Shown in pieces: positions 3,993 through 19,604 of a stretch of 32,000 nucleotides of DNA. The position numbers and the translations under genes are program-made. The notes beneath the pieces were generated by a model. It did no database searches, was not told the origin of the DNA, and worked only from the letters and a program-made list of their open reading frames with translations. Source of the stretch: Candidatus Electrothrix yaqonensis (lineage in GTDB: Bacteria > Desulfobacterota > Desulfobulbia > Desulfobulbales > Desulfobulbaceae); the NCBI GenBank assembly GCA_047651235.1, contig CP178758.1:3150001-3182000 (forward strand), in the 5' to 3' direction. Position 1 is the stretch's first letter, and every line of letters begins with the position of its first letter.

Positions 3993-4005
3993 CTGATGTT
4001 ACGCA
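3993..4005. repeat. Left terminal inverted repeat of the IS4-like element
   Basis: ctgATGTTACGCA. The reverse complement of 4791-4803 is cttATGTTACGCA. Confidence 0.65.
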
Positions 4006-4754
4006 GCCTGAAGTCGCTGCAGCTCATCAGAAGCCGAACGAATAGCTTTCAGATAGAGCTTGGTCTTCAGAGCAAAGTGGTTCATCTTTGTTCTGATTTT
4101 TAGATGCTCCATTTTAAACACCGTGATAACGGAGGCAAAAATATGATTACTCTGCGCATTTACACGACGTGCAGGAGATTTGGCTAATGCTGCGTTGGAC
4201 TTCAAAGATTTATGGTACACCTCGACGTTCCATCGTTTTGTATAGATTGCCGTGATCGTGTTCCGATCCGCTGTCAGCTGACTGCAGGCATCGATCATCA
4301 GGCGCAGCAGTTCATTCTTCGTGACTTCGCTCTGACGTTTTTCCCGGCGGGTTTTCAGGTCGCTGAAACGAATCGGCTTGCGGATGAGGTCGAATGCTAT
4401 GGGGATCGAAACATCATCGACATGATAAAGACCGTTCAGCATGTTGATTCCTTTGATATTGCGCCCTCTGCAATGGTCGTAATGCCAACAGATGAGTTCG
4501 TTTTCATCCATCCACGGTTTTTCCTCAACAGTATCGTCGAATATCAGCACACCGTCTTCGGATGCAACTTCACGGACGGTCGATTTGACCTGTTTCCATA
4601 AATCCCTGGAACTCCATTCACCGTCAGCGAGAAAACGAGTGAATTTATCATAATTTATGCAGCTATCAAGCATATCGGACAAGCCTGTGGCTGTGGCGTA
4701 CCCGAAGGTCACAGCCAAATAATCCGTGTAGAGATCAGGATATTTTGTATTCAT
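3999..4754 (-). CDS. IS4-superfamily DDE transposase, probably internally deleted and non-functional
   Basis: The first DDE Asp region is present (VLIFDDTVEEK...WHYDHCRGRNIKGIN). The C-terminal Y-x2-R-x3-E-x6-K signature is present (YTKRWNVEVYHKSLK). The segment that normally carries the second Asp is missing, and the protein is only 251 aa. Confidence 0.75.
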   Translation of the reverse strand: MNTKYPDLYTDYLAVTFGYATATGLSDMLDSCINYDKFTRFLADGEWSSRDLWKQVKSTVREVASEDGVLIFDDTVEEKPWMDENELICWHYDHCRGRNIKGINMLNGLYHVDDVSIPIAFDLIRKPIRFSDLKTRREKRQSEVTKNELLRLMIDACSQLTADRNTITAIYTKRWNVEVYHKSLKSNAALAKSPARRVNAQSNHIFASVITVFKMEHLKIRTKMNHFALKTKLYLKAIRSASDELQRLQAA

Positions 4755-6646: not shown

Positions 6647-7480
6647 TTACGGCTCCTCCTGTGCAGCCGGGTTAGTCTCCTCATCTCCCAGTATATCAAA
6701 CAGGCCCCAATCCGGCATGGTCAGTTCCGGCATCCATTTATCCAGCCCCCATTCCGGCGGTTCTCCGGCAATCAGCCGTTCCTGCAGCTTTTTTGCCTTG
6801 GGAATGATTGCGGCATCAGGGTACATGGTGAGAATGTATTTCAGGCGGTGTTTGGCCTGGTCATATTTTTCGGTGCGGACATAGAAGACTGCAACATAGT
6901 ATTCATGATTGACGATAAACTCCTTGGCCGCCCGGATTCTGGCTTTAGCCTCTCTGGTGTAGGGAGAATCCGGGAAGGTGCGCAGCAGGCGGGAAAATGA
7001 CCTGATGGCGTCATGGGCACCGCTGACATCCCGGTCCACCCGGTCGGTACGGGAAAAATCACACATACCGATCTGAAACAGGACATAGGGAACAGCCTCG
7101 TTCGAGGGATGCCGTTCTTCAAACTCCTCGTACAGGTCTCTGGCCTCGTCGTAATCTTCGTCATAATACTTGCAGTCTGCTGACTTCAGTTCGGCCAGCA
7201 GAGCCTGGGGACTGAACGGATAATGATCTTTGATTTGCTGAAAATAGTCCAGAGCAGTGCGGTACTTCCCGATTCTGTATGCCTCCATGCCCTTGGTCAC
7301 AAGACTCTCTGCCGGTTCAAACTGCTCTTTGCTGCCTCCTGAACCGAAAAAAGACCAGGAACTGAACATGCCCTCTGTGGCGGAGCAGCCGGTGAGAGAA
7401 AGACAGGCGGCAGCAAGGAGAACATATGCGACGGCATGAACCGGAACTGCACCGTTGTTATAATCTTTTTTTATTGTCAT
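6647..7480 (-). CDS. bamD: Outer membrane protein assembly factor BamD (YfiO-type TPR lipoprotein)
   Basis: Lipobox LSLTGCS after a signal peptide. BamD-like TPR body (YRIGKYRTALDYFQQIKDHYPFSPQA...LLRTFPDSPYTREAKARI...YYVAVFYVRTEKYDQA). Start moved to ATG 7480 (MTIKKD...). The stop lies 12 nt before the gspE-type start. Confidence 0.85.
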   Translation of the reverse strand: MTIKKDYNNGAVPVHAVAYVLLAAACLSLTGCSATEGMFSSWSFFGSGGSKEQFEPAESLVTKGMEAYRIGKYRTALDYFQQIKDHYPFSPQALLAELKSADCKYYDEDYDEARDLYEEFEERHPSNEAVPYVLFQIGMCDFSRTDRVDRDVSGAHDAIRSFSRLLRTFPDSPYTREAKARIRAAKEFIVNHEYYVAVFYVRTEKYDQAKHRLKYILTMYPDAAIIPKAKKLQERLIAGEPPEWGLDKWMPELTMPDWGLFDILGDEETNPAAQEEP

Positions 7481-7919
7481 TATATTGATTATATTGAAAT
7501 AGGCAGACGTTAATTTCATCCTTAAACATCAACATCAGATACACATTTTCACATTGTGAAACCAAAGGTTCCATTCTGTCAGGATACAAATCCAAGGCAT
7601 ACGCATGAATAAAAAAATGACGAAAGGCGAGATATTCACCTAAGGTGTTTTTTAGAGCAGGCGATATGACTTGTTCTTTTGCAGACATATTCAGAAGCTC
7701 TTTATGCCATGAGCCTCCGGTCGGCAAACAGATGCCCCGACTTTTGAGGAGTTGCTTGAGAATATTTTCTATCCCGTTAGAAAAATTGTGAATCAGTGTT
7801 GATACACCTGCAAGTTCCAGGATTGATAAAGAGGACAGCCGGTCGTGCTGCGGAAGTTCGTTGATCACCAGGTCAATATGTTCAAATTCGGCTTCAACTT
7901 TACCCTGCAGGTTATCCAT
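7458..7919 (-). CDS. HEPN-domain protein, HepT-like toxin candidate
   Basis: 153 aa, helical, with an Rx4H motif (RHFFIH). The ATG overlaps the stop of the upstream nucleotidyltransferase gene by 8 nt (ATGGATAA), the classic MNT-HEPN gene order. Confidence 0.7.
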   Translation of the reverse strand: MDNLQGKVEAEFEHIDLVINELPQHDRLSSLSILELAGVSTLIHNFSNGIENILKQLLKSRGICLPTGGSWHKELLNMSAKEQVISPALKNTLGEYLAFRHFFIHAYALDLYPDRMEPLVSQCENVYLMLMFKDEINVCLFQYNQYNDNKKRL

Positions 7920-8190
7920 ATAAAGTCAATCCGTTGGAACATATTGTTTTGCTGAATTTATTTTTTTTCTGTAAATCAAAAAGGTCCACTGGCCTTGAAA
8001 GGCTGAAAATCAGCTCGCTATAAAACTTAAAAAACAGAGAATCAGGAATCCCCTCAACTGCCAAGTCTATATCATTGCCGTCTGTCGCTGGGTCGCAGCC
8101 CGAACCGAACAGAATGACTTTCCTGACATTATACTTTTTCGCTATAGTTTGTATTTCACGCTTGTCCTGCTCTGATATCATCATCGGCAC
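7912..8190 (-). CDS. Minimal nucleotidyltransferase (MntA-like antitoxin candidate)
   Basis: Pol-beta-type NTase motif LFGSGCDPATDGNDIDLAV. The track start at 8190 is GTG. ATG codons at 8184 and 8181 are alternative starts. Confidence 0.8.
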   Translation of the reverse strand: MPMMISEQDKREIQTIAKKYNVRKVILFGSGCDPATDGNDIDLAVEGIPDSLFFKFYSELIFSLSRPVDLFDLQKKNKFSKTICSNGLTLYG

Positions 8191-8210
8191 CGTTATCCAT
8201 GATAGTCTTT

Positions 8211-8660
8211 TTAACAGGGCTGATTGCTTTCCGGCCAGAATGCATGATCAAGTGCCAGTTCACAAGGCCACGGGCATTGTTCCGGAAAAGTGCTTTTGGG
8301 CAGCCCGGTTTCTTTTGCCGCGCCGGTACGGGCATATTTATAGGCCCGCTCAACAGCCTGGGGGATTTTTTGTCTCAGACTGGGATTATCCTGCAGATGA
8401 TCTGCAATCTGATCACGCTGTTCTTCAATGGTATACCGCCAGCTGTTGCCCTGATATCCCGGCTGAAACTGCCATTTGAGGAGGTGAATGAAAAGGACGG
8501 TTAATCTGCTGACAAGTTCACGCTGCAGACTTCGTCCCATATCCTCTATTTCCTCGGCAAGATGCTCGCGGTCAAGTTCCGCAAGTCTGCCTGCCCGGAG
8601 CAGCCCGGCCTGCTGCGTTGTCCAGCCGAAGAAATCGGCAGCATGTAGCTCTTCAGCCAT
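8211..8660 (-). CDS. DUF29 domain protein
   Basis: FFGWTTQQAGLLRAGRLAELDREHLAEEIEDMGRSLQRELVSRLTVLFIHLLKWQFQP matches the DUF29 pattern I know from cyanobacteria and proteobacteria. GGGAA SD upstream of ATG 8660. GC is visibly higher than in both flanking genes. Confidence 0.8.
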   Translation of the reverse strand: MAEELHAADFFGWTTQQAGLLRAGRLAELDREHLAEEIEDMGRSLQRELVSRLTVLFIHLLKWQFQPGYQGNSWRYTIEEQRDQIADHLQDNPSLRQKIPQAVERAYKYARTGAAKETGLPKSTFPEQCPWPCELALDHAFWPESNQPC

Positions 8661-8699
8661 AATTTTCCCTTTTGGTGAGTTATCTATGCGGGATATCGC

Positions 8700-9002
8700 T
8701 TAAACATATTCAGTTGTCCGCTTAATAGACCTTGCGATATTTTTGCTTCTTATTCCTTTCAATCCGGCAACAGTGATTACATCTGTCTTTTTTCCGAACA
8801 ATACCTCAAGATATTCAACAAACTCTATAAAATGCAAACCGATGGGCTTCTTGAAATCCGCGATAATGTCAATATCACTCTCTTCCCGCTGAGTTCCTGT
8901 CGCATATGAGCCGAATAACCCTATTTTTTTAAGGCCGAATTCAGCAGCAAGAAATTGATAATTGTCTCGCAGCTTTTTGGTTATCTGTTCTTTTGTCAGC
9001 AT
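8700..9002 (-). CDS. Minimal nucleotidyltransferase (MNT/MntA-like)
   Basis: LFGSYATGTQREESDIDIIADF is the NTase motif. 100 aa, AT-rich like the two genes upstream. It starts 27 nt after the HEPN-like gene's stop. Confidence 0.8.
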   Translation of the reverse strand: MLTKEQITKKLRDNYQFLAAEFGLKKIGLFGSYATGTQREESDIDIIADFKKPIGLHFIEFVEYLEVLFGKKTDVITVAGLKGIRSKNIARSIKRTTEYV

Positions 9003-9029
9003 AATGAATTGCTGGAGTCGTAGCTTCCG

Positions 9030-9836
9030 TTAGATATTTTTTATATTCTTCGTAATAACTGATGCCAATAATTCAATAAGCCCTAGTTGAAGGAAAACAA
9101 CTTTATCCTTTCTGGTTTCCAGAACGTCAACACTTTCTGTGTTGTCAAAATCATTACCATGGGCCACCTCATGGCGCTTCCTATTGATTTCGTCAAGAAA
9201 TTCTTGCCATAAAGTTCTGCGAGCTACTTTTATTGTACTCTCTTTTAGATTTAGTCTTGATTCCTGGCAACTATAAGGAAAAACGACAAGGCTTTTTTTT
9301 AAGATACTTCTTTCCTTGTCTATAGACTCCTTCAATTCTCGATTTGTTCCTGAAAACACATTGTCAAGCTCTGAGTCATGCAAACAGGAAAAAACATTTT
9401 CTACCCCAAAACCACTGAATATCAACTTAATAGTATCTGGTTTTGGATTCTTGTTTGTAGTCGTTAGAAATGGTTCAAAAGAGATATTGGCTTCAAGTTC
9501 TGAAAATTTTTCCGAAAGATTTTTGACTTTCTTCCAATAACTGTGACTGCGTTTGTCAGGAGGGTTCCCGATATATTTTATGCAATATGTGTTTTGAATT
9601 TTCTGGGGTAATTCGGAGAATGAACAATTTTTATTTAAATCTTGACTTACTGATCTGACAAGTTCTTTTGTAAAACCTTCTAAGTGAGCGACCAACAATA
9701 CCGTTATAGAACGACATAAGGCATTGTACAAATCGTAATTTAAATCTTCTTGCTTTTTAGCTTCACCAAGAAGAATATCTATCTCCTGCCATTTTTCGTC
9801 AAGTTGATCCAGAAATTCCGACAGAAAAGTTGCCAT
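9030..9836 (-). CDS. HEPN-like nuclease (MAE_28990/MAE_18760-type family, recollection)
   Basis: 268 aa and helical. N-terminal LLVAHLEGFTKELV and C-terminal Rx4H motif (NRKRHEVAHGND). Its ATG shares one nucleotide with the DUF262 stop (TAATG at 9834-9838). Confidence 0.7.
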   Translation of the reverse strand: MATFLSEFLDQLDEKWQEIDILLGEAKKQEDLNYDLYNALCRSITVLLVAHLEGFTKELVRSVSQDLNKNCSFSELPQKIQNTYCIKYIGNPPDKRSHSYWKKVKNLSEKFSELEANISFEPFLTTTNKNPKPDTIKLIFSGFGVENVFSCLHDSELDNVFSGTNRELKESIDKERSILKKSLVVFPYSCQESRLNLKESTIKVARRTLWQEFLDEINRKRHEVAHGNDFDNTESVDVLETRKDKVVFLQLGLIELLASVITKNIKNI

Positions 9837-10921
9837 TAGGAGATAACCTCCATCCCCTTTTGAATTCTTGTAGTGAGTTTTGAAACATCTGTGACGCTTC
9901 CTTCAACGGACGAAAAAAAAGTTTTATCATGGAAAAGTTCTCTGATTTTTTTAATATCTAAAGTTTTCTTTTTTTCGGAAAGAGAAACCGGAACGACTAT
10001 TGAGTCAAAAACAGCGGCATTAAATTTTGACATTCTACGAAGTTCGCCATCTACGCTCCTGTATTTTGCGAACGGTAATTTTTCACCTGATAATTTAATA
10101 TGCTCAAAAGTAGATAGAAAGAAATCTTCCATTTTTTCCAATTCTTCTTTGTCAAGTTTATTGAATTGTTCCATTCTTTCTGTTAGGAATTTTTTAAATT
10201 CCCCTTTATACTGTTTATATCCTTCTTTATAAGCTAACGAAAAAAACCTTAAAACAAGCTCCTCGTCTTCCATTTTCTGGACTCTTTTGCTGTCTTCTTT
10301 GTCTAAAGAGCATAATTCTCTAAAGTTATTATTTTTAGATATTTTTTTAATGAGTTTTTTAAACGGCCCTCGACAGGTTGCATTTCTTAACTCTTGAGGT
10401 TCAAGTGTTACAGAACCTGAATTTAACCTTTCAAAAATATCGTATTTAACTTGGCTGTCAGCCGTTGAATCAATACGTAGACATCGAATAGTTCTTTCTT
10501 CCAGTCTTCTAATTAAAAAGGGCGGAAGATCCCTATAGTATGAATTATTTAACTCTGTAAGAACCTCTAAACCATTTAGGGAATATTTATTTTTTAAAAA
10601 ACTATAAATAGCTGTTAATCTTTGCTGACCATCAATAACAGAATATCTTGAAACATCCTCTTCAACTTCTTCGTCAACATCTATATCTTGCGATATATAA
10701 ATAAATGGGACAGGAATATTAAGGATCAAACTTTCAATTAACCTAGAAGAAACTTCGTCACTCCATCGATGCCTCCGTTGATATTCAGGATTTAATTGTA
10801 TAGTTTTTCTGTCTATTTTTTTTACTAATGTTTCAAGATCATACTCAATTGTTTGAGTTTTTACAGTTCTCTCTTTGGCTTTTCTTTGAATGCTTTCTAA
10901 TTTTTTTTTCAGACCGGACAT
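9836..10921 (-). CDS. DUF262 (ParB-like/GmrSD N-terminal type) domain protein
   Basis: Has the QRRHRW...VIDGQQRLTAIYSF motif. No DUF1524/His-Me nuclease half is present. Start placed at ATG 10921 (MSGLKKK...), with an AGGGGA SD 8 nt upstream. The track start at 10984 is GTG. Confidence 0.85.
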   Translation of the reverse strand: MSGLKKKLESIQRKAKERTVKTQTIEYDLETLVKKIDRKTIQLNPEYQRRHRWSDEVSSRLIESLILNIPVPFIYISQDIDVDEEVEEDVSRYSVIDGQQRLTAIYSFLKNKYSLNGLEVLTELNNSYYRDLPPFLIRRLEERTIRCLRIDSTADSQVKYDIFERLNSGSVTLEPQELRNATCRGPFKKLIKKISKNNNFRELCSLDKEDSKRVQKMEDEELVLRFFSLAYKEGYKQYKGEFKKFLTERMEQFNKLDKEELEKMEDFFLSTFEHIKLSGEKLPFAKYRSVDGELRRMSKFNAAVFDSIVVPVSLSEKKKTLDIKKIRELFHDKTFFSSVEGSVTDVSKLTTRIQKGMEVIS

Positions 10922-11004
10922 TGACTTTTCCCCTAACAAACAAATACAATTTAAATATTCCAAAGGTGCAACTGTCAGATACACCTTTGGAACAAGTCCT
11001 CCGT

Positions 11005-11051
11005 TGTTATCAATATTCTACTTTAACAGATAATGTCCTATATTGATAACA
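11005..11051. repeat. Perfect 12-bp inverted repeat (TGTTATCAATAT / ATATTGATAACA) with a 23-nt spacer
   Basis: Arms at 11005-11016 and 11040-11051, read directly. It lies between the stop of the 11062 gene and the DUF262 start, at the high-GC/low-GC transition. Confidence 0.8.
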
Positions 11052-11061
11052 GCTTCATTTT

Positions 11062-12225
11062 TTACCCCTGCATCCCCGCCACAGCCTCCTTCACCAAAGC
11101 CGCCACAGTCGTTCTGACCGGCTCGCCTTGCTCATAAATAGTGATTTCCGTTTCATCCTTCTGCAGAGCCATGAGCTGAAAAAAAGCCTCCTTGGCTTGG
11201 ATTCTTCTCAGCAGGCGGGCCATCAGGCCGCGCACTGCGGGATTGTCGTGCTCGAGAAAATGGAACATCGAGTAAAACGGCGTACTGCGGATCAGATCGG
11301 GCCGGGTGGCGGCAATCTCGCTCAGGCCCCAGAGGGCAGCTTCCTGGGTTCCCTTATCGCCCATAAAGTTGAGCAGATGCCGGGAAAAGGCCCCGTAGAT
11401 GTCTGTCCGGGCGGACACGATGGCGCCGATGGCCTCGACCATTCCCCAGGGCGTGGAAGCGGAATCCGAGCAGGACTCAAAGAGCCGGTGCAGCATATCC
11501 GCCACTGGAGCCGGTTCACGGGTGGAGAGCCGCGCTCCGACCTGCCCGATCAGCCAGGCGGTTTTGTACCGTTTCTGCGGATCCGGCTCATAGAGCAGGC
11601 GCTGCATAAAACGCAGGGTACGCTTATCGTCAAAGCTCAGATCGACCAGCCCGTCAATGTCACCGGCCTCAACCAGCTTTTTGACTGCCAGCTTGGAGGC
11701 CCGTTGTTTTTTCCGTTTGGGGTCACGGGCCGGTTCTATCTCCGGGGCAGCTGTACCGACAGCGGCACCGGGAGCAGGAGCCGCATTATGCGCAGCATTG
11801 TTGCCCGGCAAAGCTGCCCGGGCTTCCATCTCCCTCTTCTGCGAAAAACGCTCGGCAATTTCGGCTACATCCTTATGCAGGCGGACAAAATAGAGCACCC
11901 CGCGCACAGCCCGACCGTCCAGATTCCGTTTGGGACAGATCTGGTGGGTGACATCGTCGTAGTTTTCCACCCGGCCGGTAAGGTAATCGTTCTCCGGGAT
12001 CAGCTCCCAGGCCAGATCCCATTCCTCGCCGCAGGCATAGACTAGGCATTCTACCATAGCCGAACCGACATTATGGCCGGTGGTGTCGCAGACATAGACT
12101 GCGCCGCATTCACACCGGCCCACCGGGAATTCGGTCATTTTGCGCTGCAGGGCCTCCACCGGCCGGCCCACTTCCATGCCGCAGAAGGGGCACCAGGGCT
12201 TTGTGTGTACTTGTTTTTCCGCCAT
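11062..12225 (-). CDS. Zinc-ribbon plus HEAT/ARM-like repeat protein (resembles the family I recall as DVU0298)
   Basis: N-terminal Cys cluster CPFCG...CECG. An Ala/Pro-rich linker with a basic patch (KRKKQRASK). A helical-repeat C-terminus. The ATG shares one nucleotide with the TPR gene's stop (TAATG at 12223-12227). Confidence 0.6.
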   Translation of the reverse strand: MAEKQVHTKPWCPFCGMEVGRPVEALQRKMTEFPVGRCECGAVYVCDTTGHNVGSAMVECLVYACGEEWDLAWELIPENDYLTGRVENYDDVTHQICPKRNLDGRAVRGVLYFVRLHKDVAEIAERFSQKREMEARAALPGNNAAHNAAPAPGAAVGTAAPEIEPARDPKRKKQRASKLAVKKLVEAGDIDGLVDLSFDDKRTLRFMQRLLYEPDPQKRYKTAWLIGQVGARLSTREPAPVADMLHRLFESCSDSASTPWGMVEAIGAIVSARTDIYGAFSRHLLNFMGDKGTQEAALWGLSEIAATRPDLIRSTPFYSMFHFLEHDNPAVRGLMARLLRRIQAKEAFFQLMALQKDETEITIYEQGEPVRTTVAALVKEAVAGMQG

Positions 12226-13851: not shown

Positions 13852-14845
13852 CTATTTTTGAGCGTTATGCCGAAGGTCGGTTATCAGACTAACCACCAGC
13901 CGGATGAGCAGGTCTTTCTGCTCCGGTGCGCTGGAGGCGATAAGCAGGGTCAGGGCGACCAGGACCTGGTCGTCAGGAAGCGACCGGTGCTGATTACTCT
14001 GCAGAAACAGGAGAAAAAGAAACGAACCGATTCGTTTGTTGCCGTCCGTGAATGGATGATCCTTGATGACAAAATAGAGCAGATGGGCTGCTTTTCCCTC
14101 TATGCCGGGATAGAACATCCTGTCCGGCAAAGCTCTGGCCTACAGCCCCGATAATCCCAGCCAAGCCGTGCCCCCGCTCCTGACCGAAAATCTCGGTGGC
14201 CTCGCCTCGTTCCAGTAAATCCAGACGCAGGGAGGCAATAGCTTCCCGTACTTCCGCAGTCTCAGGTACTCTGCCGGTTTTCTTTCCCGCCTTGGGAAGG
14301 GGCAAAGAATCCTCATCATACTGCCAGAGCAACTGCCAGGTGCGGGCATAGTCTCTGACCAGCATCAGCACAGTCCTGCCATCATCATTGACCAGATCGT
14401 GGTTTTCCAAGGTGTTACTCAATAAGTCCAGCACCTGCCTGATTTCGGCAGCACTTTTTTCCGCCAGCCGTTTCTGATGCAATGTGTATCCTTGAACCAG
14501 ATGCTGTTTCAGCACGGTAGTCGCCCAGATACGGAATTGGGTGCCACGCTTGGAGTTAACCCGATAGCCCACGGAAATGATGGCGTCAAGGTTATAGTAA
14601 TCGACCTGATAGGTCTTGCCGTCTGCGGCAGTTGTTGCATTTTTTGCAACAACTACTGAACGCTCCAGCTCCTCAGACTGAAAGATATTACGAAGATGTC
14701 TTGAGATTACCGACTTATCACGCTCAAAAAGCTCAGCAATCTGGTTTAAGGTCAACCAGACTGTCTCATCCTTCAGCCGTACATCAATCCCGGTTTGACC
14801 GTCGTTGGTTTGATATAAAATGACTTCACTTTGCGTAGGTAACAT
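13852..14845 (-). pseudogene. RhuM-family / Fic-DOC fusion gene with a single frameshift
   Basis: ORF 13994-14845 carries the RhuM-type N-terminus (VILYQTNDGQTGIDVRLKDETVWLTLNQIAELF...GTQFRIWAT). The Fic core (GIEGKAAHLLYFVIKDHPFTDGNKRIGS) continues in another frame (13852-14130). The frame changes at about 14113-14122, consistent with a 1-nt deletion. GGAG SD upstream of ATG 14845. Confidence 0.8.
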
Positions 14846-15007: not shown

Positions 15008-15451
15008 TTAAAGCTGTTCAACCTCCTTTGAAGCAATCAGCTCTTCAATTTCCTGAATCAGTGCTGGCAGATTAGGCTGCTCAAAGCTCATATTCGGTGC
15101 CGGAATGCGGTTTCGTTTGATGTTCGGAGGAATATGTTTGTGGTGAGGATGTGTACTTGCCAGAGATGTGCTGTTTGGATGAGGCTGGGAATCGTACCAA
15201 TACAACTTCTCATCATCCTTCCATACTTCGTAGCCGTACCAGTCGGTTACAATGGGAATTTGCCCGAACAGAACACGTTCGCGAAGTACCAGTCTGAATC
15301 CATGCTCGAAGTGCAGTTCCCCGAAAACCCTCCCCAGTGTTGAACCGCGCCGAACAAAGACCAGACTTGAACGCTGCACAGAGGGAAACTGTTCCGTAAT
15401 CGTGTACAGGAACAGTTCGTAATCTTCCGGTGTGCGAAACGGGGTACTCAT
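15008..15451 (-). CDS. DUF6516/TumE-like putative toxin-antitoxin component
   Basis: 147 aa with YWYDSQPHPNSTSLASTHPHHKH, which resembles the DUF6516 pattern (recollection of the ...PHHKH motif). The ATG overlaps the upstream stop (ATGA, 15448-15451). Confidence 0.55.
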   Translation of the reverse strand: MSTPFRTPEDYELFLYTITEQFPSVQRSSLVFVRRGSTLGRVFGELHFEHGFRLVLRERVLFGQIPIVTDWYGYEVWKDDEKLYWYDSQPHPNSTSLASTHPHHKHIPPNIKRNRIPAPNMSFEQPNLPALIQEIEELIASKEVEQL

Positions 15452-15739: not shown

Positions 15740-16144
15740 TTAATCCATCGGTGTTTTCACCCCGAACAGCTGCTCCAGTTTGTGCAGCAGGGCGGTGACC
15801 AGTTTTGAGTCTGCCGGTTTATGTTCGATCCGGAAACGCCATTTGCCGGTGGAGGTGCGTTCGATTTTGATGTGACTGCGGAGGAGAAAGGTTACGGCTA
15901 CCAGGGTGGCTACCTCGGTGCCGGGGAAGAAGGTTTTGCAGGTTTCATCCTGATTGCGCAGGGCCTCTATGGTTGCGGCCTGCTGCGGGTCTTGGTTGAG
16001 GACGGCCAAGGTGTCCTCAAGGATTTCCGGGTCCAGGTCGGCAGGGGGCGGTGCTGCGGGGAATTCGGCCTGGAAGGCGGCGAAATCCGGGTCAGCGGCG
16101 GCTAGGGTGTGGAGGATGCAGTGGTCTTGTTCAGTTGTGCTCAT
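15740..16144 (-). CDS. 134-aa protein of unknown function, translationally coupled to the CHAT-STAND gene
   Basis: ATG at 16144 lies inside the last codons of the upstream gene (14-nt overlap, 16131-16144). The N-terminal half is acidic and Pro/Ala-rich. A hydrophobic stretch (VATLVAVTFLL) follows, then a conserved C-terminal tail. No family recognised. Confidence 0.65.
   Translation of the reverse strand: MSTTEQDHCILHTLAAADPDFAAFQAEFPAAPPPADLDPEILEDTLAVLNQDPQQAATIEALRNQDETCKTFFPGTEVATLVAVTFLLRSHIKIERTSTGKWRFRIEHKPADSKLVTALLHKLEQLFGVKTPMD
15761..15849 (-). repeat. Copy A of the ~89-bp repeat (the in-gene, intact copy)
   Basis: Encodes GKWRFRIEHKPADSKLVTALLHKLEQLFG within CDS 15740-16144. 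Direct repeats of it lie at 14910-14998 and 13746-13832. Confidence 0.9.
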
Positions 16145-19100
16145 TGAGTTTCTGCTCCAATTGGTCAAGGGGGATGTGTTGCTCCAGTCCGGCCTGCTGC
16201 CAGTTTTGCCGGAGTATGGTTTGGGTTTTCGGGTCGGCGGCTTGAAGTGCCCGGATAAAATTTCGAGCTACGATGACAAAGCTGTGCGGGTCATCAAAGC
16301 GGAGGAAAACCGGCATAGCCTTCAGATACCATTCTCCGGCACTTGCGTAATCCTTCTGTAAGAGGGCAAGCTGTCCAAGCTGGTGATAGGTGCTCGCCGC
16401 GCCATGCTCGTTACTCTGTTTTTCTTTGAGAGTGAGAGATTTTTTATACCAATTTTCTGCTGCTACAAACTCTTGTTGCTCCTGGGCGATTATTCCCAAA
16501 TGGTGATATGTCATTGCCGATCCGGGCTCATCACCTTGTTTTTCTTTGATCTCCAGAGATTTTACATACCATTGTTTCGCTGTTGCAAAGTCGCGCTGTT
16601 CTTCGGCAATTCTTCCTAACTGGTGAAGGGTCACTGACGCACCACGCTCGGTGCCCTGCTCTTCCTCTATCGTTAGAGATTTCTTGTACCATTGTTCTGC
16701 AGCTACAAAGTTCCGTTGCTTTTGAGCGATGCTTCCTAACTGGTGATAGGTGGCTGCCGCCTCGTGCTCGTTGCCCTGTCTGTTAAAAATCGTGAGCGAT
16801 TTCTTATACCACTGTTCCGCTGCGGTAAAATCACGCCGCTCCTCGGCGATAATCCCTATATGGTGATAGGTGACTGCCGCATCGTGCTCGTTGCCATGTT
16901 TTTCAAAGATAGCCAGCGATGTCTTATACCACTTTTTCGCCGCAGCAAAATCCCGCTGCTCCTCAGCAATTCTCCCTAAATCGTGATAACATCTTGCTTC
17001 GCCTATATAATTTTTCTCTTTTTGGTGATGTTCAACAAGGTTGGCAAACAACTGTGCTGCGCCTGCATAATCACGGCTATTCAGAGCATAGGCCGCTAAT
17101 CTTGTAGTTAGGGCGGTGATATCCTGAGCCATGCCAAGATGCTGCGCCAGTTCCAAGGCATGATGAAAATTGCCCTGATGCAGAGCAAAAGGAATGCGTT
17201 GTTCGTGTAATTCTTTCAACGCAAGCTGGTCGGCAAAGCTACCCATGAAATCAACAAAGGCCCGTTTCAACCCTTCCGTTGCCGGATGCTGCCGTTCCAG
17301 ATGACTTTGCAGGGCAGGGTGCATTTGAAAGATATTGCTACCCAGAGCATTGACTAAACCTGCGGTTTCCAGCAAAGCAAAACAGTTTTGAATCGGCTCG
17401 CTGTTTTCCTCCGTGTTCAGCATGTACTGAGCAAGATAATTCTGCTCCACAAACCGCCGATGCAGACCGATCAACTGAAGCACCGGGCCGTATTCCTCCG
17501 GCAGGCCCTGATCAAGCACAGCCAAGGCCGCTAAAATCCGGCTTCCGGATTCGTCTCCTTCAAGCAGGGCAAACTCCTTGCGCAGATCAGCCAGTAGCTC
17601 TTTTGCCCCTTTGTCTTTTAATTGTAGCAGCACCGTGCGCAAAGCCAGCGGATGCCCGTCCAACTCCTCAATCAGAGCACGGAAATCCTCGTCATCCCGC
17701 CTGACGGTCAACCCTAAATCACGCAGCACCTGATTGCAGAACTGCCACAGCTCTTCCCCGTGCAGGCCGGACAGAGGCAGGCGGAAGCATTCCCCGGTAC
17801 TTAGCCATTTTTCCGCAGAGCGGCTGGTGATGAGCACCTTGGTTTTGCCGCCACGCAATCCGGCCAGCAGTTCTTTGAGCAGGCCCCGGTCATCCTCGGA
17901 CAGCATGGGCCGAACTTCCGTGCCTGCAAGCCCGGAGGCGGACTCGAAGTTATCCCAGATCAGCAGAAAGGGGTGCGCCTTCAAGACCTTGATCAACCCG
18001 GCCAGCTTCTGTTCCAGCGGCGCAGCAAGGGCATCGGTACCAAAAATACCGTCAATTAGCTGATTGATCACAAACTCTGCACTGCGGATTTCATCAAAGC
18101 TGAACCAAAAGACCTGCTGCGCAATCTGCTGATCCAGCCCGCCGGTATCCCGCAGCCAATGGAGAAAACCTTTTGCCAAAGTAGTCTTGCCCACACCGGC
18201 CATGCCGTGAATCAGAAAGGCTGCCTGGGGCTGGCGCAAGCGGGCACGTTCCAACTGCTGCACGGCCTGCTGCCGCCCGATAAAGCCGTCATCACCCAAT
18301 TGCCGGGCCTGTTCCGGGAGCGGGTCCGGTGCAGCGTCTTGCTCCAGAGTAAATTTGTCCGCCCCTGGAGTCGCTGCAACCGGTCGTGCCAGCACGGTCT
18401 CATCCCCCTGCATCTGTTGATAGAGCACCGGCACCAGCCAGTCCTGCAAGGGATGTTCACCGAGCAAACAGGGCCGCTGATCATGAACCAGCATGGCCTG
18501 GCGACCGGCACGGGTGGCTTCGGCCACATTGGCGGTTTCCAGTAGGCGGGAGTAAAAGGCAGGCATAAAGTGCTGCGCCCCGCTGACATAGAGGTTATAA
18601 CCCATTGCCATCACGCTACGGATACCGGCCTTGAGCAGGGCCGCTGCTACTGAGGCAAAGGCGTCCTCGGCCTGATCGTCAATCCGGGCCGACTGGCAGG
18701 CGTTGAGCACCATGATCGGAATGCGGTATTCAGCCAGCAGCTCCGAGAGCAGGCGGGCCTCCACCGGGGCAGCCTCAGCCTCGTCATTTTCAAAGAGCAG
18801 CCTGCCCTGCGCCCCGCTTTTGAAAGCGTCCGAGGAAATGCTGTCCTCAGTTGCGCCGTAGCCGCCGTGGCCGTCAAAATGAACAATATGGTAAAATTCC
18901 GGTCTGTCGTGGAGCTGCTGCCGAAGTTGGTCAAAGGTGGGCGGGCGCAGCACGTCAATATGCACAGGCAATTGCTGCTCGCGGGTCAGTTCCACCAGCG
19001 GACGGGACAGGGCATGAAAGCCCACATCGCTGTCCCCGCCGGGTCGGGCAATGACCAGCAGGATGTTGATGCGATCCTTGGGCAAGTTCTCCGGCAACGG

Positions 19101-19604
19101 CAGCGGATCATTCAGGTCTTTGTTGATCTGCCGCTCAATCCGGCAATGATGGGCCAAGGTACCGATCTCCGGGTCATGTATAGCCTCCCAAGGCCAAGCC
19201 AGCACACCGGGATCATCAGAAGAAATCTTCAGATGCAGATTTTCTAGGCCCTTTTGCCGGGCCTCCTGCAACCAGAGATATGCCTGCTTCTGAAACAGGG
19301 CTTCAAAGCAGCTTTTGCCCCATTGTTGCAAGGTATCCTGGACCCGCTCGGCCAGCTCAGGATATGCGCCTGTGGGTAATTCAAGAAACTGCTCCAGATA
19401 CCAGCGCAGATCCTGCTGCAAATTGCTGCTCGGACGACCGGGAACACGGGTCTGATCCGGCCCGGTGAGTGTCACCGGAGCAGAGGTCTTCAGGTCGCTG
19501 CCGCCGCCGCGTATGACGATAAACTGCGGATTGTTCTGCTCGTTGTTCTGATAACCGATATGGTTGATCTGCAACTGGTGCGATTGATGCAGTCGGGAAG
19601 GCAT
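16131..19604 (-). CDS. CHAT protease - NB-ARC (STAND) ATPase - TPR repeat protein
   Basis: 1157 aa. CHAT dyad candidates are HFDGHG (His ~246) and VLNACQS (Cys 303). Walker A is GMAGVGKTT (Lys 473), Walker B is LLIWDNFE, and the NB-ARC GxP motif is GHPLAL. Five near-perfect plus flanking degenerate 40-aa TPR units follow (WYKKSL.I.E.QGNEH.AA.TYHQLG.IA.EQRDF). GGAG SD lies 7 nt upstream of ATG 19604. Confidence 0.9.
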   Translation of the reverse strand: MPSRLHQSHQLQINHIGYQNNEQNNPQFIVIRGGGSDLKTSAPVTLTGPDQTRVPGRPSSNLQQDLRWYLEQFLELPTGAYPELAERVQDTLQQWGKSCFEALFQKQAYLWLQEARQKGLENLHLKISSDDPGVLAWPWEAIHDPEIGTLAHHCRIERQINKDLNDPLPLPENLPKDRINILLVIARPGGDSDVGFHALSRPLVELTREQQLPVHIDVLRPPTFDQLRQQLHDRPEFYHIVHFDGHGGYGATEDSISSDAFKSGAQGRLLFENDEAEAAPVEARLLSELLAEYRIPIMVLNACQSARIDDQAEDAFASVAAALLKAGIRSVMAMGYNLYVSGAQHFMPAFYSRLLETANVAEATRAGRQAMLVHDQRPCLLGEHPLQDWLVPVLYQQMQGDETVLARPVAATPGADKFTLEQDAAPDPLPEQARQLGDDGFIGRQQAVQQLERARLRQPQAAFLIHGMAGVGKTTLAKGFLHWLRDTGGLDQQIAQQVFWFSFDEIRSAEFVINQLIDGIFGTDALAAPLEQKLAGLIKVLKAHPFLLIWDNFESASGLAGTEVRPMLSEDDRGLLKELLAGLRGGKTKVLITSRSAEKWLSTGECFRLPLSGLHGEELWQFCNQVLRDLGLTVRRDDEDFRALIEELDGHPLALRTVLLQLKDKGAKELLADLRKEFALLEGDESGSRILAALAVLDQGLPEEYGPVLQLIGLHRRFVEQNYLAQYMLNTEENSEPIQNCFALLETAGLVNALGSNIFQMHPALQSHLERQHPATEGLKRAFVDFMGSFADQLALKELHEQRIPFALHQGNFHHALELAQHLGMAQDITALTTRLAAYALNSRDYAGAAQLFANLVEHHQKEKNYIGEARCYHDLGRIAEEQRDFAAAKKWYKTSLAIFEKHGNEHDAAVTYHHIGIIAEERRDFTAAEQWYKKSLTIFNRQGNEHEAAATYHQLGSIAQKQRNFVAAEQWYKKSLTIEEEQGTERGASVTLHQLGRIAEEQRDFATAKQWYVKSLEIKEKQGDEPGSAMTYHHLGIIAQEQQEFVAAENWYKKSLTLKEKQSNEHGAASTYHQLGQLALLQKDYASAGEWYLKAMPVFLRFDDPHSFVIVARNFIRALQAADPKTQTILRQNWQQAGLEQHIPLDQLEQKLNEHN
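16334..17000 (-). repeat. Tandem 120-bp coding repeats (TPR units) inside the CHAT-STAND gene
   Basis: On the + strand, TGGTGA(T/A)(A/G)GGT... recurs at 16381, 16501, 16621, 16741 and 16861. Degenerate units lie on both sides. The period is exactly 120 nt and in frame. Confidence 0.85.

Follow-up and report, generated by a model that had tools for sequence, protein, structure and literature searches.

A translationally coupled DUF262-HEPN cassette and a probably independent MNT1 antitoxin gene in the HEAT-bamD hotspot of Candidatus Electrothrix yaqonensis

A stretch of 32,000 nucleotides (nt) of Candidatus Electrothrix yaqonensis (contig CP178758.1, positions 3,150,001 to 3,182,000), referred to here as the window, contains an AT-rich block of three adjacent genes: a DUF262 gene, a gene for a HEPN protein of the RiboL-PSP type and a gene for a minimal nucleotidyltransferase (MNT), named MNT1. 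They belong to a row of six co-oriented genes between a HEAT-repeat gene and bamD, all on the minus strand. The DUF262 gene comes first (9836-10921, minus strand, 361 amino acids (aa), 31.9% G+C), followed by HEPN (9030-9836, minus strand, 268 aa, 34.7% G+C) and MNT1 (8700-9002, minus strand, 100 aa, 38.0% G+C). An initial annotation, made from these letters alone, had proposed that the three genes were acquired together and form one abortive-infection system in which the MNT acts as a brake on the HEPN toxin. The low G+C content on which it drew was confirmed, with 59.5% in the HEAT-repeat gene at 11062-12225 and 50.3% over the whole window. The G+C content at third codon positions climbs stepwise from DUF262 over HEPN to MNT1 (0.24, 0.31 and 0.38), so the composition of the three genes is not uniform. 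The ratio of nonsynonymous to synonymous substitution rates (dN/dS) for orthologs of the block genes is 0.06-0.12, which identifies DUF262, HEPN and MNT1 as real genes and not chance open reading frames (ORFs). Searches with the Pfam hidden Markov models (HMMs) returned the annotated family for all three proteins.

The DUF262 protein was matched by Pfam GmrSD_N (E = 2.5e-28) as its sole Pfam domain. It carries the DGQQR motif and lacks the DUF1524 nuclease half, as had been annotated; the Pfam scan gave no DUF1524 match in this protein or in the neighbouring genes. Three motifs, QRxxxW (residues 48-53), DGQQR (97-101) and FxxxN (163-167), are all invariant in the alignment of the family (A3). 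In ParB-like NTPases the QRxxxW, DGxQR and FxxxN motifs cluster at the nucleotide site (PMC12065111). The AlphaFold2 (AF2) model (predicted local distance difference test, pLDDT, 80) has a helical C-terminal half, and its best fold match in the PDB is BrxU, an enzyme of the GmrSD family (7p9k_A, probability 0.98), with ParB N-domains next. Among the PADLOC models, the protein scores higher with NsnA (E = 1.2e-77, 260 bits, model positions 34-379 of 385) than with PD-T4-2_A (E = 7.7e-43, 145 bits, model positions 43-361 of 363), and this ranking holds throughout the family, the Escherichia coli and Paenibacillus members included. DUF262 homologs share 63-73% identity across Desulfobulbia, Gammaproteobacteria and Bacteroidota, while their HEPN partners in the same loci are only 38-62% identical, making DUF262 the better-conserved partner. 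Members of the DUF262 family were also found in Firmicutes (loci L009-L011).

The HEPN protein scored above the gathering score with two Pfam families, HEPN_RiboL-PSP (E = 7.3e-18) and HEPN_MAE_28990 (9.1e-9). Its Rx4H motif reads RHEVAH (R221-H226), as in the initial annotation, and residues N218, R221, H222, H226 and G227 are invariant among 30 homologs. In its context, RHEVAHGN, the motif is without the tyrosine (Tyr) of the Rx4HxY form. The gene is joined directly to its upstream neighbour: the DUF262 stop codon (TAA, 9838-9836) and the HEPN start codon (ATG, 9836-9834) have nucleotide 9836 in common, confirming the annotated TAATG junction. The AF2 model is all-helical (pLDDT 91). A Foldseek search of the model against the PDB gave a best E-value of 0.27, and PDB profile searches with two alignments (A1 and A3) gave no meaningful match. 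Because no relative has a solved structure, the Pfam HMMs and the invariant Rx4H motif are the basis of the HEPN assignment. At a cutoff as lenient as E<=1, this protein and four relatives had no match among the PADLOC models, and the pair is for that reason not called as a system by PADLOC v2. The protein is a predicted RNase effector.

Relatives of the HEPN protein were collected from a set with one genome per species (16 loci), from JGI and ENA metagenomes (31 loci) and from IMG/VR viral contigs (6 loci), supplemented with exact-protein look-ups of the closest matches and one plasmid. Wherever a related locus extends upstream of HEPN, a DUF262 gene is immediately adjacent there, and among 29 cluster representatives the DUF262 stop and HEPN start overlap by 1 nt in 17 and by 4 nt in another 8. 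DUF262 and HEPN are thus obligate, translationally coupled partners. Downstream of HEPN, 57 loci had at least 350 nt of sequence, representing 41 distinct HEPN proteins in 31 clusters at 90% identity. The initial annotation had suggested neighbourhood statistics on how frequently an MNT comes after this kind of HEPN gene: no MNT was found downstream in any of the 57, using phmmer with MNT1 and with MNT2 (a second MNT gene of the window), an HMM made from 39 MNTs, a Pfam scan and a search for the GS...DxD motif. The HMM recovered all positive controls, that is, every MNT1 ortholog, and the Pfam scan took in 60 distinct downstream ORFs and was assessed on the top 25 of the 50 families matched. 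The genes found at this position vary and include Rep, P2 gpA, a resolvase, IS200, valyl-tRNA synthetase and ParD, among others. An exhaustive profile search of 1.84 billion representatives gave a family of 116 clusters (50% identity) at E<=1e-30, a number that rises to 303 at E<=1e-3. When the best 150 of these 303 representatives are considered, nearly all full-length members measure 250-310 aa, and since the longest has only 375 aa, MNT fusions are absent from this set.

The pair is AT-rich wherever it occurs, with 28-39% G+C against 40-54% in the surrounding locus, and it is the AT-richer part in 14 out of 14 unrelated hosts. It is a mobile operon resident in defence hotspots. The E. coli members lie in P2-like prophages with the portal gene on one side and gpA on the other, a position known as the tin/old defence hotspot (PMC9519451), and a Klebsiella member is carried on a conjugative plasmid. 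With the E. coli DUF262-HEPN pair as query, megablast gave no match in 5,426 complete genomes of that species, and tblastn of HEPN gave none in 50,697 phage records. Decayed copies of the pair were found in four loci (L014, L057, L064 and L073). The copy in Ca. Electrothrix sp. ATG2 (L073:1497-2641) consists of a truncated DUF262 (aa 1-278, 88% identical) without HEPN, placed between a GGDEF/EAL gene and a histidine-kinase gene, and retains 28 nt of the 3' end of the HEAT gene at 96% identity. This suggests that part of the flank travelled with the cassette, or else a rearrangement or an assembly artefact.

The limits of the cassette were located by blastn against the loci of Ca. Electrothrix that lack it (L024, L025 and L028-31). 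Homology ends at 11060-11063, at the stop of the HEAT gene, and resumes at 9004/9005, 2-3 nt ahead of the MNT1 ATG. With break points at 11062 and 9004/9005, the swapped segment holds DUF262 and HEPN only. The inserted or swapped cassette (9005-11061, minus strand) consists of the promoter-proximal 140 nt, the two genes and most of the 27-nt spacer in front of MNT1; in the relatives its place is taken by a HARE-HTH gene, with or without XisH/XisI. This boundary between HEPN and MNT1 contradicts the joint horizontal acquisition that had been proposed. Each module has a low G+C content of its own: it is 31-40% in MNT1 orthologs from cassette-free genomes, and the DUF262-HEPN pair separately has the range given above, so that the shared low value is no sign of joint acquisition.

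A sister locus from the closest relative, Electrothrix sp. AR4 (L017), has retained the cassette and lost MNT1. It is syntenic from the HEAT gene onwards and aligns continuously to window positions 11464-9035 at 82% nucleotide identity. Both cassette genes are intact, DUF262 with 88% aa identity and a dN/dS of 0.08, and HEPN with 84% aa identity, a dN/dS of 0.12 and the RHEVAH motif retained. Synonymous divergence (dS) is 0.7-0.8 in the cassette and 0.96 in the HEAT flank, similar values that fit the presence of the cassette in the common ancestor. Of MNT1 only about the C-terminal third is left, without a start codon or the GS...DxD motif; a DUF29 pseudogene and an IS200 transposase come after it. 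With MNT1 decayed and the pair intact, HEPN evidently persists without this MNT. The two loci also have a hairpin in common, which in the window measures 35 nt (10958-10992, minus strand; -21.8 kcal/mol, z = -4.7) and lies about 37 nt upstream of the DUF262 start; in L017 it is kept with compensatory changes (CCAAAGG/CCTTTGG versus CGGAAGG/CCTTCCG). A role as operator of the whole family was ruled out, as only the Electrothrix copies have the hairpin and none was found upstream of DUF262 in other taxa. It may terminate or insulate transcription behind the HEAT gene, or else regulate the cassette.

MNT1 starts exactly 27 nt past the HEPN stop, the spacing given in the initial annotation. The protein was assigned to Pfam NTP_transf_2 (E = 2.2e-12), has an intact catalytic motif (G31-S32...D43-I-D45) and matches NCBIfam MntA_antitoxin at 1.9e-9 (37 bits, under the curated cutoff of 60 bits). 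Its orthologs are 78-86% identical, all come from Ca. Electrothrix and occupy the same HEAT..bamD-mshE site without the cassette, on contigs that are syntenic with the window (TPR-HEAT ... BamD-MshE). The most complete arrangement, HEAT-XisH-XisI-HARE_HTH-MNT1-HepT-DUF29-BamD, is found in L024, where a HepT toxin of the DUF86 family (119 aa, motif RDRLIHDY) has a start that overlaps the MNT1 stop by 8 nt (ATGTCTAA). In L028 and L029 (HEAT-MNT1-HepT-BamD) HepT is frameshifted after residue 57, ahead of Rx4H, and in L031 a deletion has created an MNT1::HepT fusion; throughout L028-31 MNT1 is intact and DUF29 is reduced to two short remnants. L025 (HEAT-HARE_HTH-MNT1-DUF29) has the same MNT1-DUF29 junction as the window, with a gap of 29 nt instead of 39 nt. 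Because its orthologs pair with HepT at this site where the cassette is missing, MNT1 is the antitoxin of a resident type VII module, and the MntA-type nature given to it by the initial annotation is correct. The opposite history, in which cassette and MNT1 together are the ancestral state, was rejected on the HepT placed between MNT1 and DUF29 in L024, on the HepT remnants in L028-31 and on the HARE-HTH gene or its 3' remnant that precedes MNT1 in five cassette-free loci.

The MNT1-HepT module is decaying in several Electrothrix lineages, and in the strain of the window the toxin gene has been deleted: the gene on the 3' side of MNT1 is DUF29 and no cognate HepT is present there. At 8684-8707 (minus strand), overlapping the stop codon of MNT1, lies a possible, weak relic of the start of the lost hepT gene. 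It begins ATGTTTAAGCGA... (MFKR...) and reads ATGTTTAAGCGATATCCCGCATAG (MFKRYPA*), compared with ATGTCTAAAAGACCG (MSKRP...) in L024; the likeness is weak because 8 of the first 12 nt are constrained by MNT1 coding and only the K-R codons are independent. MNT1 itself has remained under purifying selection (dN/dS 0.06-0.11), also between lineages in which HepT is deleted, frameshifted or fused, and is kept at full length with its catalytic motif (window 8700-9002; L025:2312-2614; L028:1615-1917). The simplest idea for its retention without the toxin would be that it neutralises, in trans, HepT paralogs elsewhere in the genome. No terminator was found between HEPN and MNT1, in a scan whose promoter and terminator counts were near the shuffled expectation.

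DUF29 (8211-8660, minus strand, 149 aa; Pfam DUF29, 5.5e-50) is a resident neighbour of the MNT1-HepT module in Electrothrix and has a dN/dS of 0.07-0.12. With 53.3% G+C it interrupts the AT-rich stretch, which resumes beyond it at 39-40% with MNT2 (7912-8190, minus strand, 39.8% G+C; Pfam Polbeta, 2.3e-9) and HepT2 (7458-7919, minus strand, 38.7% G+C; Pfam HepT-like_2, 8.8e-18). MNT2-HepT2 (7458-8190), between DUF29 and bamD, is a second, complete and canonical MNT-HepT pair: the MNT2 stop and HepT2 start overlap by 8 nt (ATGGATAA) and the HepT2 translation carries a canonical Rx4HxY motif, RHFFIHAY. MntA enzymes AMPylate the Tyr of the HepT Rx4HxY motif, and this Tyr is present in both HepT2 and the HepT of L024. 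The MNT2-HepT2 pair was not present between DUF29 and bamD in L024. The initial annotation had overlooked both this pair and the interrupting DUF29 gene. The entire HEAT-bamD interval (7458-11061; compared in L017, L024, L025 and L028-L031) is a variable hotspot for accessory genes across Ca. Electrothrix, holding XisH/XisI, HARE-HTH, MNT1-HepT, DUF29, DUF262-HEPN, MNT2-HepT2 and IS200 in differing combinations and with many partial deletions.

The closest characterised counterpart of the cassette is PD-T4-2 of E. coli ECOR65, described as 'DUF262, HEPN' by Vassallo et al. (2022; PMC9519451). In that strain it lies at QOYX01000002:338334-339873 and comprises RCO39066.1 and an unannotated ORF. 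Cloned PD-T4-2 protects E. coli from phage T4, and its deletion sensitises the native strain ECOR65 (PMC9519451). PD-T4-2A matches DUF262, DndB and ParBc, and for PD-T4-2B HEPN_RiboL-PSP is the top HHpred match with HEPN_MAE_28990 second (PMC9519451). As in PD-T4-2, a DUF262 gene without DUF1524 is followed by HEPN in an adjacent, co-oriented, stand-alone pair found on mobile elements, and the HEPN protein of the window has the same Pfam ranking. It differs in length, with 268 aa where PD-T4-2B has about 165 aa, the core HEPN helices being separated by additional ones. The likeness was judged by PADLOC models and published domain descriptions. Since the DUF262 protein scores higher with NsnA than with PD-T4-2_A, the pair is at most a possible member of PD-T4-2 proper; it has that architecture but is probably of a different subfamily. 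An association of this kind had also been listed by Anantharaman et al. (2013) as 'Ribo L-PSP-HEPN ... operon with ParB' (PMC3710099). The initial annotation was therefore right in naming the DUF262-HEPN pairing as a known one, but not in calling it experimentally uncharacterised, given the protection conferred by PD-T4-2.

Three other systems share parts with the block. The DUF262 protein resembles NsnA of Menshen (NsnABC; Millman et al. 2022; Li et al. 2025, PMC12065111) over its full length, with the ParB-DUF262 domain, the three motifs and the helical C-terminal half described for NsnA ParBDB. However, the window pair is not Menshen, because neither the NsnB ATPase nor the NsnC inPIN-nuclease effector is there and the partner is a single HEPN overlapping the DUF262 stop; NsnB and NsnC genes are likewise not next to DUF262 in any of the related loci. 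The same DUF262 NTPase/sensor domain is found in the DUF262-DUF1524 proteins GmrSD, BrxU and SspE, which act in type IV restriction and phosphorothioate sensing. The window pair is without their DUF1524/HNH DNase and has its nuclease as a separate HEPN protein. As this nuclease belongs to the HEPN RNase superfamily, the expected target is RNA and not modified DNA. By analogy, the logic of GmrSD, BrxU and SspE, in which a sensor controls a nuclease, probably applies to the pair. From MntA-HepT systems (type VII, MNT-HEPN/DUF86) the window has two minimal nucleotidyltransferases, MNT1 and MNT2, and in MNT2-HepT2 a canonical pair. The RiboL-PSP HEPN, in contrast, belongs to a different HEPN family without the acceptor Tyr and lies upstream of MNT1, the reverse of the MntA-HepT order in which the antitoxin comes first and overlaps the toxin.

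Taken with these comparisons, the arrangement is with high probability that of two independent modules which became neighbours by insertion in the HEAT-bamD hotspot, a PD-T4-2-like DUF262-HEPN cassette and an orphan MNT1 antitoxin. The mechanism held most likely for the cassette is the following. DUF262 would sense a nucleic-acid cue of the phage, and NTP binding or hydrolysis by DUF262 would license HEPN in trans, in parallel to GmrSD/BrxU and SspE, where the DUF262 domain controls a fused DUF1524 DNase. The licensed HEPN would cleave RNA through a composite Rx4H site and so stop phage replication, perhaps by abortive infection in which the cell itself is sacrificed. MNT1 is most likely a bystander and not a component, expressed by read-through from the cassette, which is probable given the 27-nt gap and the lack of a detected terminator.

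Several points weigh against this reading. MNT1 is intact, catalytic motif included, with a dN/dS of about 0.1 even between lineages without an intact HepT; it is probably co-transcribed with HEPN, and some functional interplay in this strain may exist. The AR4 locus is a contig of a metagenome-assembled genome, and an MNT elsewhere in that genome could act in trans. The flanking genes, with identities of about 77-84% throughout, give no clue to which event came first. The putative defence role of the subfamily is favoured indirectly by the tin/old location of the E. coli members, the plasmid-borne Klebsiella member, the AT-richness relative to the hosts, the listing by Anantharaman et al. and the protection conferred by PD-T4-2, a counterpart whose HEPN is about 100 aa shorter and whose PADLOC model gives DUF262 145 bits, against 260 bits for Menshen NsnA, while HEPN has no matching PADLOC model.

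MNT enzymes neutralise HEPN toxins in MntA-HepT systems, and a three-component abortive-infection system was therefore considered, in which MNT1 would nucleotidylylate the RiboL-PSP HEPN and keep it inactive until DUF262 senses infection. The three AT-rich genes on the same strand, the 27-nt gap with no terminator found and an MNT1 that is catalytically intact and under purifying selection are all in its favour. Yet the co-conservation of MNT with the pair, on which the initial annotation had let its proposal depend, was not seen in any of the 57 related loci, and by this the three-component reading is refuted. Nor is there an MNT-sized extension or fusion in the best 150 of the 303 family representatives, and the AR4 locus keeps DUF262 and HEPN intact without MNT1. 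MNT1 belongs to the resident module, its orthologs pairing with DUF86 HepT at cassette-free sites, and the cassette boundary falls between HEPN and MNT1. The gene order is also reversed relative to MntA-HepT, and the target Tyr of Rx4HxY is not there, its surroundings holding an invariant G227. We leave this system a very slight probability. No more credible is a derived form of it, in which the orphan MNT1, in this one lineage now co-transcribed behind a recently gained cassette, was co-opted to modulate that HEPN or to soften its toxicity while the cassette became established. The persistence of MNT1 without HepT could also be explained if MNT1 and DUF29 formed a functional two-gene module, since the two are adjacent in the window and in L025, are both under purifying selection and decay together in the AR4 locus. 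An intact HepT stands between them in L024, however, and L028-31, which hold HepT remnants, keep MNT1 with only two remnants of DUF29; the G+C contents differ sharply (38% versus 53%) and we know of no general MNT-DUF29 association. This pairing was rejected as most improbable.

More weight, though still little, is given to a mainly selfish addiction module with HEPN as toxin and DUF262 as proteinaceous antitoxin and no dedicated anti-phage function, like the ParA/Soj-HEPN dyads proposed by Anantharaman et al. The tight coupling of the two genes through overlapping stop and start, the upstream gene in antitoxin position, the patchy distribution of a mobile, AT-rich element on plasmids and prophages and the four decayed copies would all suit such a module, which is nonetheless considered unlikely. 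Members are found in the P2 tin/old defence hotspot, and PD-T4-2, a relative at the level of architecture, protects against T4, in its native strain as well. Moreover, characterised DUF262 domains are all nucleic-acid sensors and NTPases and not simple inhibitors (PMC12065111), and a DUF262 better conserved than its HEPN partner (63-73% against 38-62%) would be unusual for an antitoxin. Addiction and defence are not mutually exclusive here, as many toxin-antitoxin systems also defend against phage.

With the independent-module reading retained, it is an evenly balanced question whether an NsnA-like DUF262 and a 'long' RiboL-PSP HEPN make up a distinct two-gene defence family, which is in any case likelier than the co-option of MNT1. 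If that co-option were true, an antitoxin would have been 'adopted' by a foreign HEPN effector. The comparison delimits a compact and widely transferred family, whose members occur in cable bacteria as well as on a plasmid and in the hotspots of P2 prophages, and the pair would be a reasonable candidate for learning about the trans control of a HEPN RNase by a ParB-like NTPase. Since the same hotspots accumulate both defence and toxin-antitoxin genes, spacing, strand and low G+C content do not prove a system at the operon level; a few syntenic relatives were enough to split an apparent three-gene system into a cassette and a decaying module.

Beyond the hotspot the window holds further genes. 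On its bamD side, the longest bamD/yfiO ORF (6647-7519) runs 62 nt into the 3' end of HepT2; the true start of bamD is probably an internal ATG (MTIKKDY..., at about 7480), still overlapping the HepT2 stop region. A DDE_5 transposase gene (3999-4754) lies in a low-G+C stretch (43-47%) and adjoins a mshE-type T2SSE ATPase gene. On the HEAT side, three more conflict-system genes are found in the vicinity, a RhuM-family gene (13994-14845), a TumE toxin gene (15008-15451) and one for a large protein. This protein of 1157 aa with a CHAT-NACHT/NB-ARC-TPR organisation, encoded at 16131-19604, resembles antiviral STAND/NLR-like proteins.

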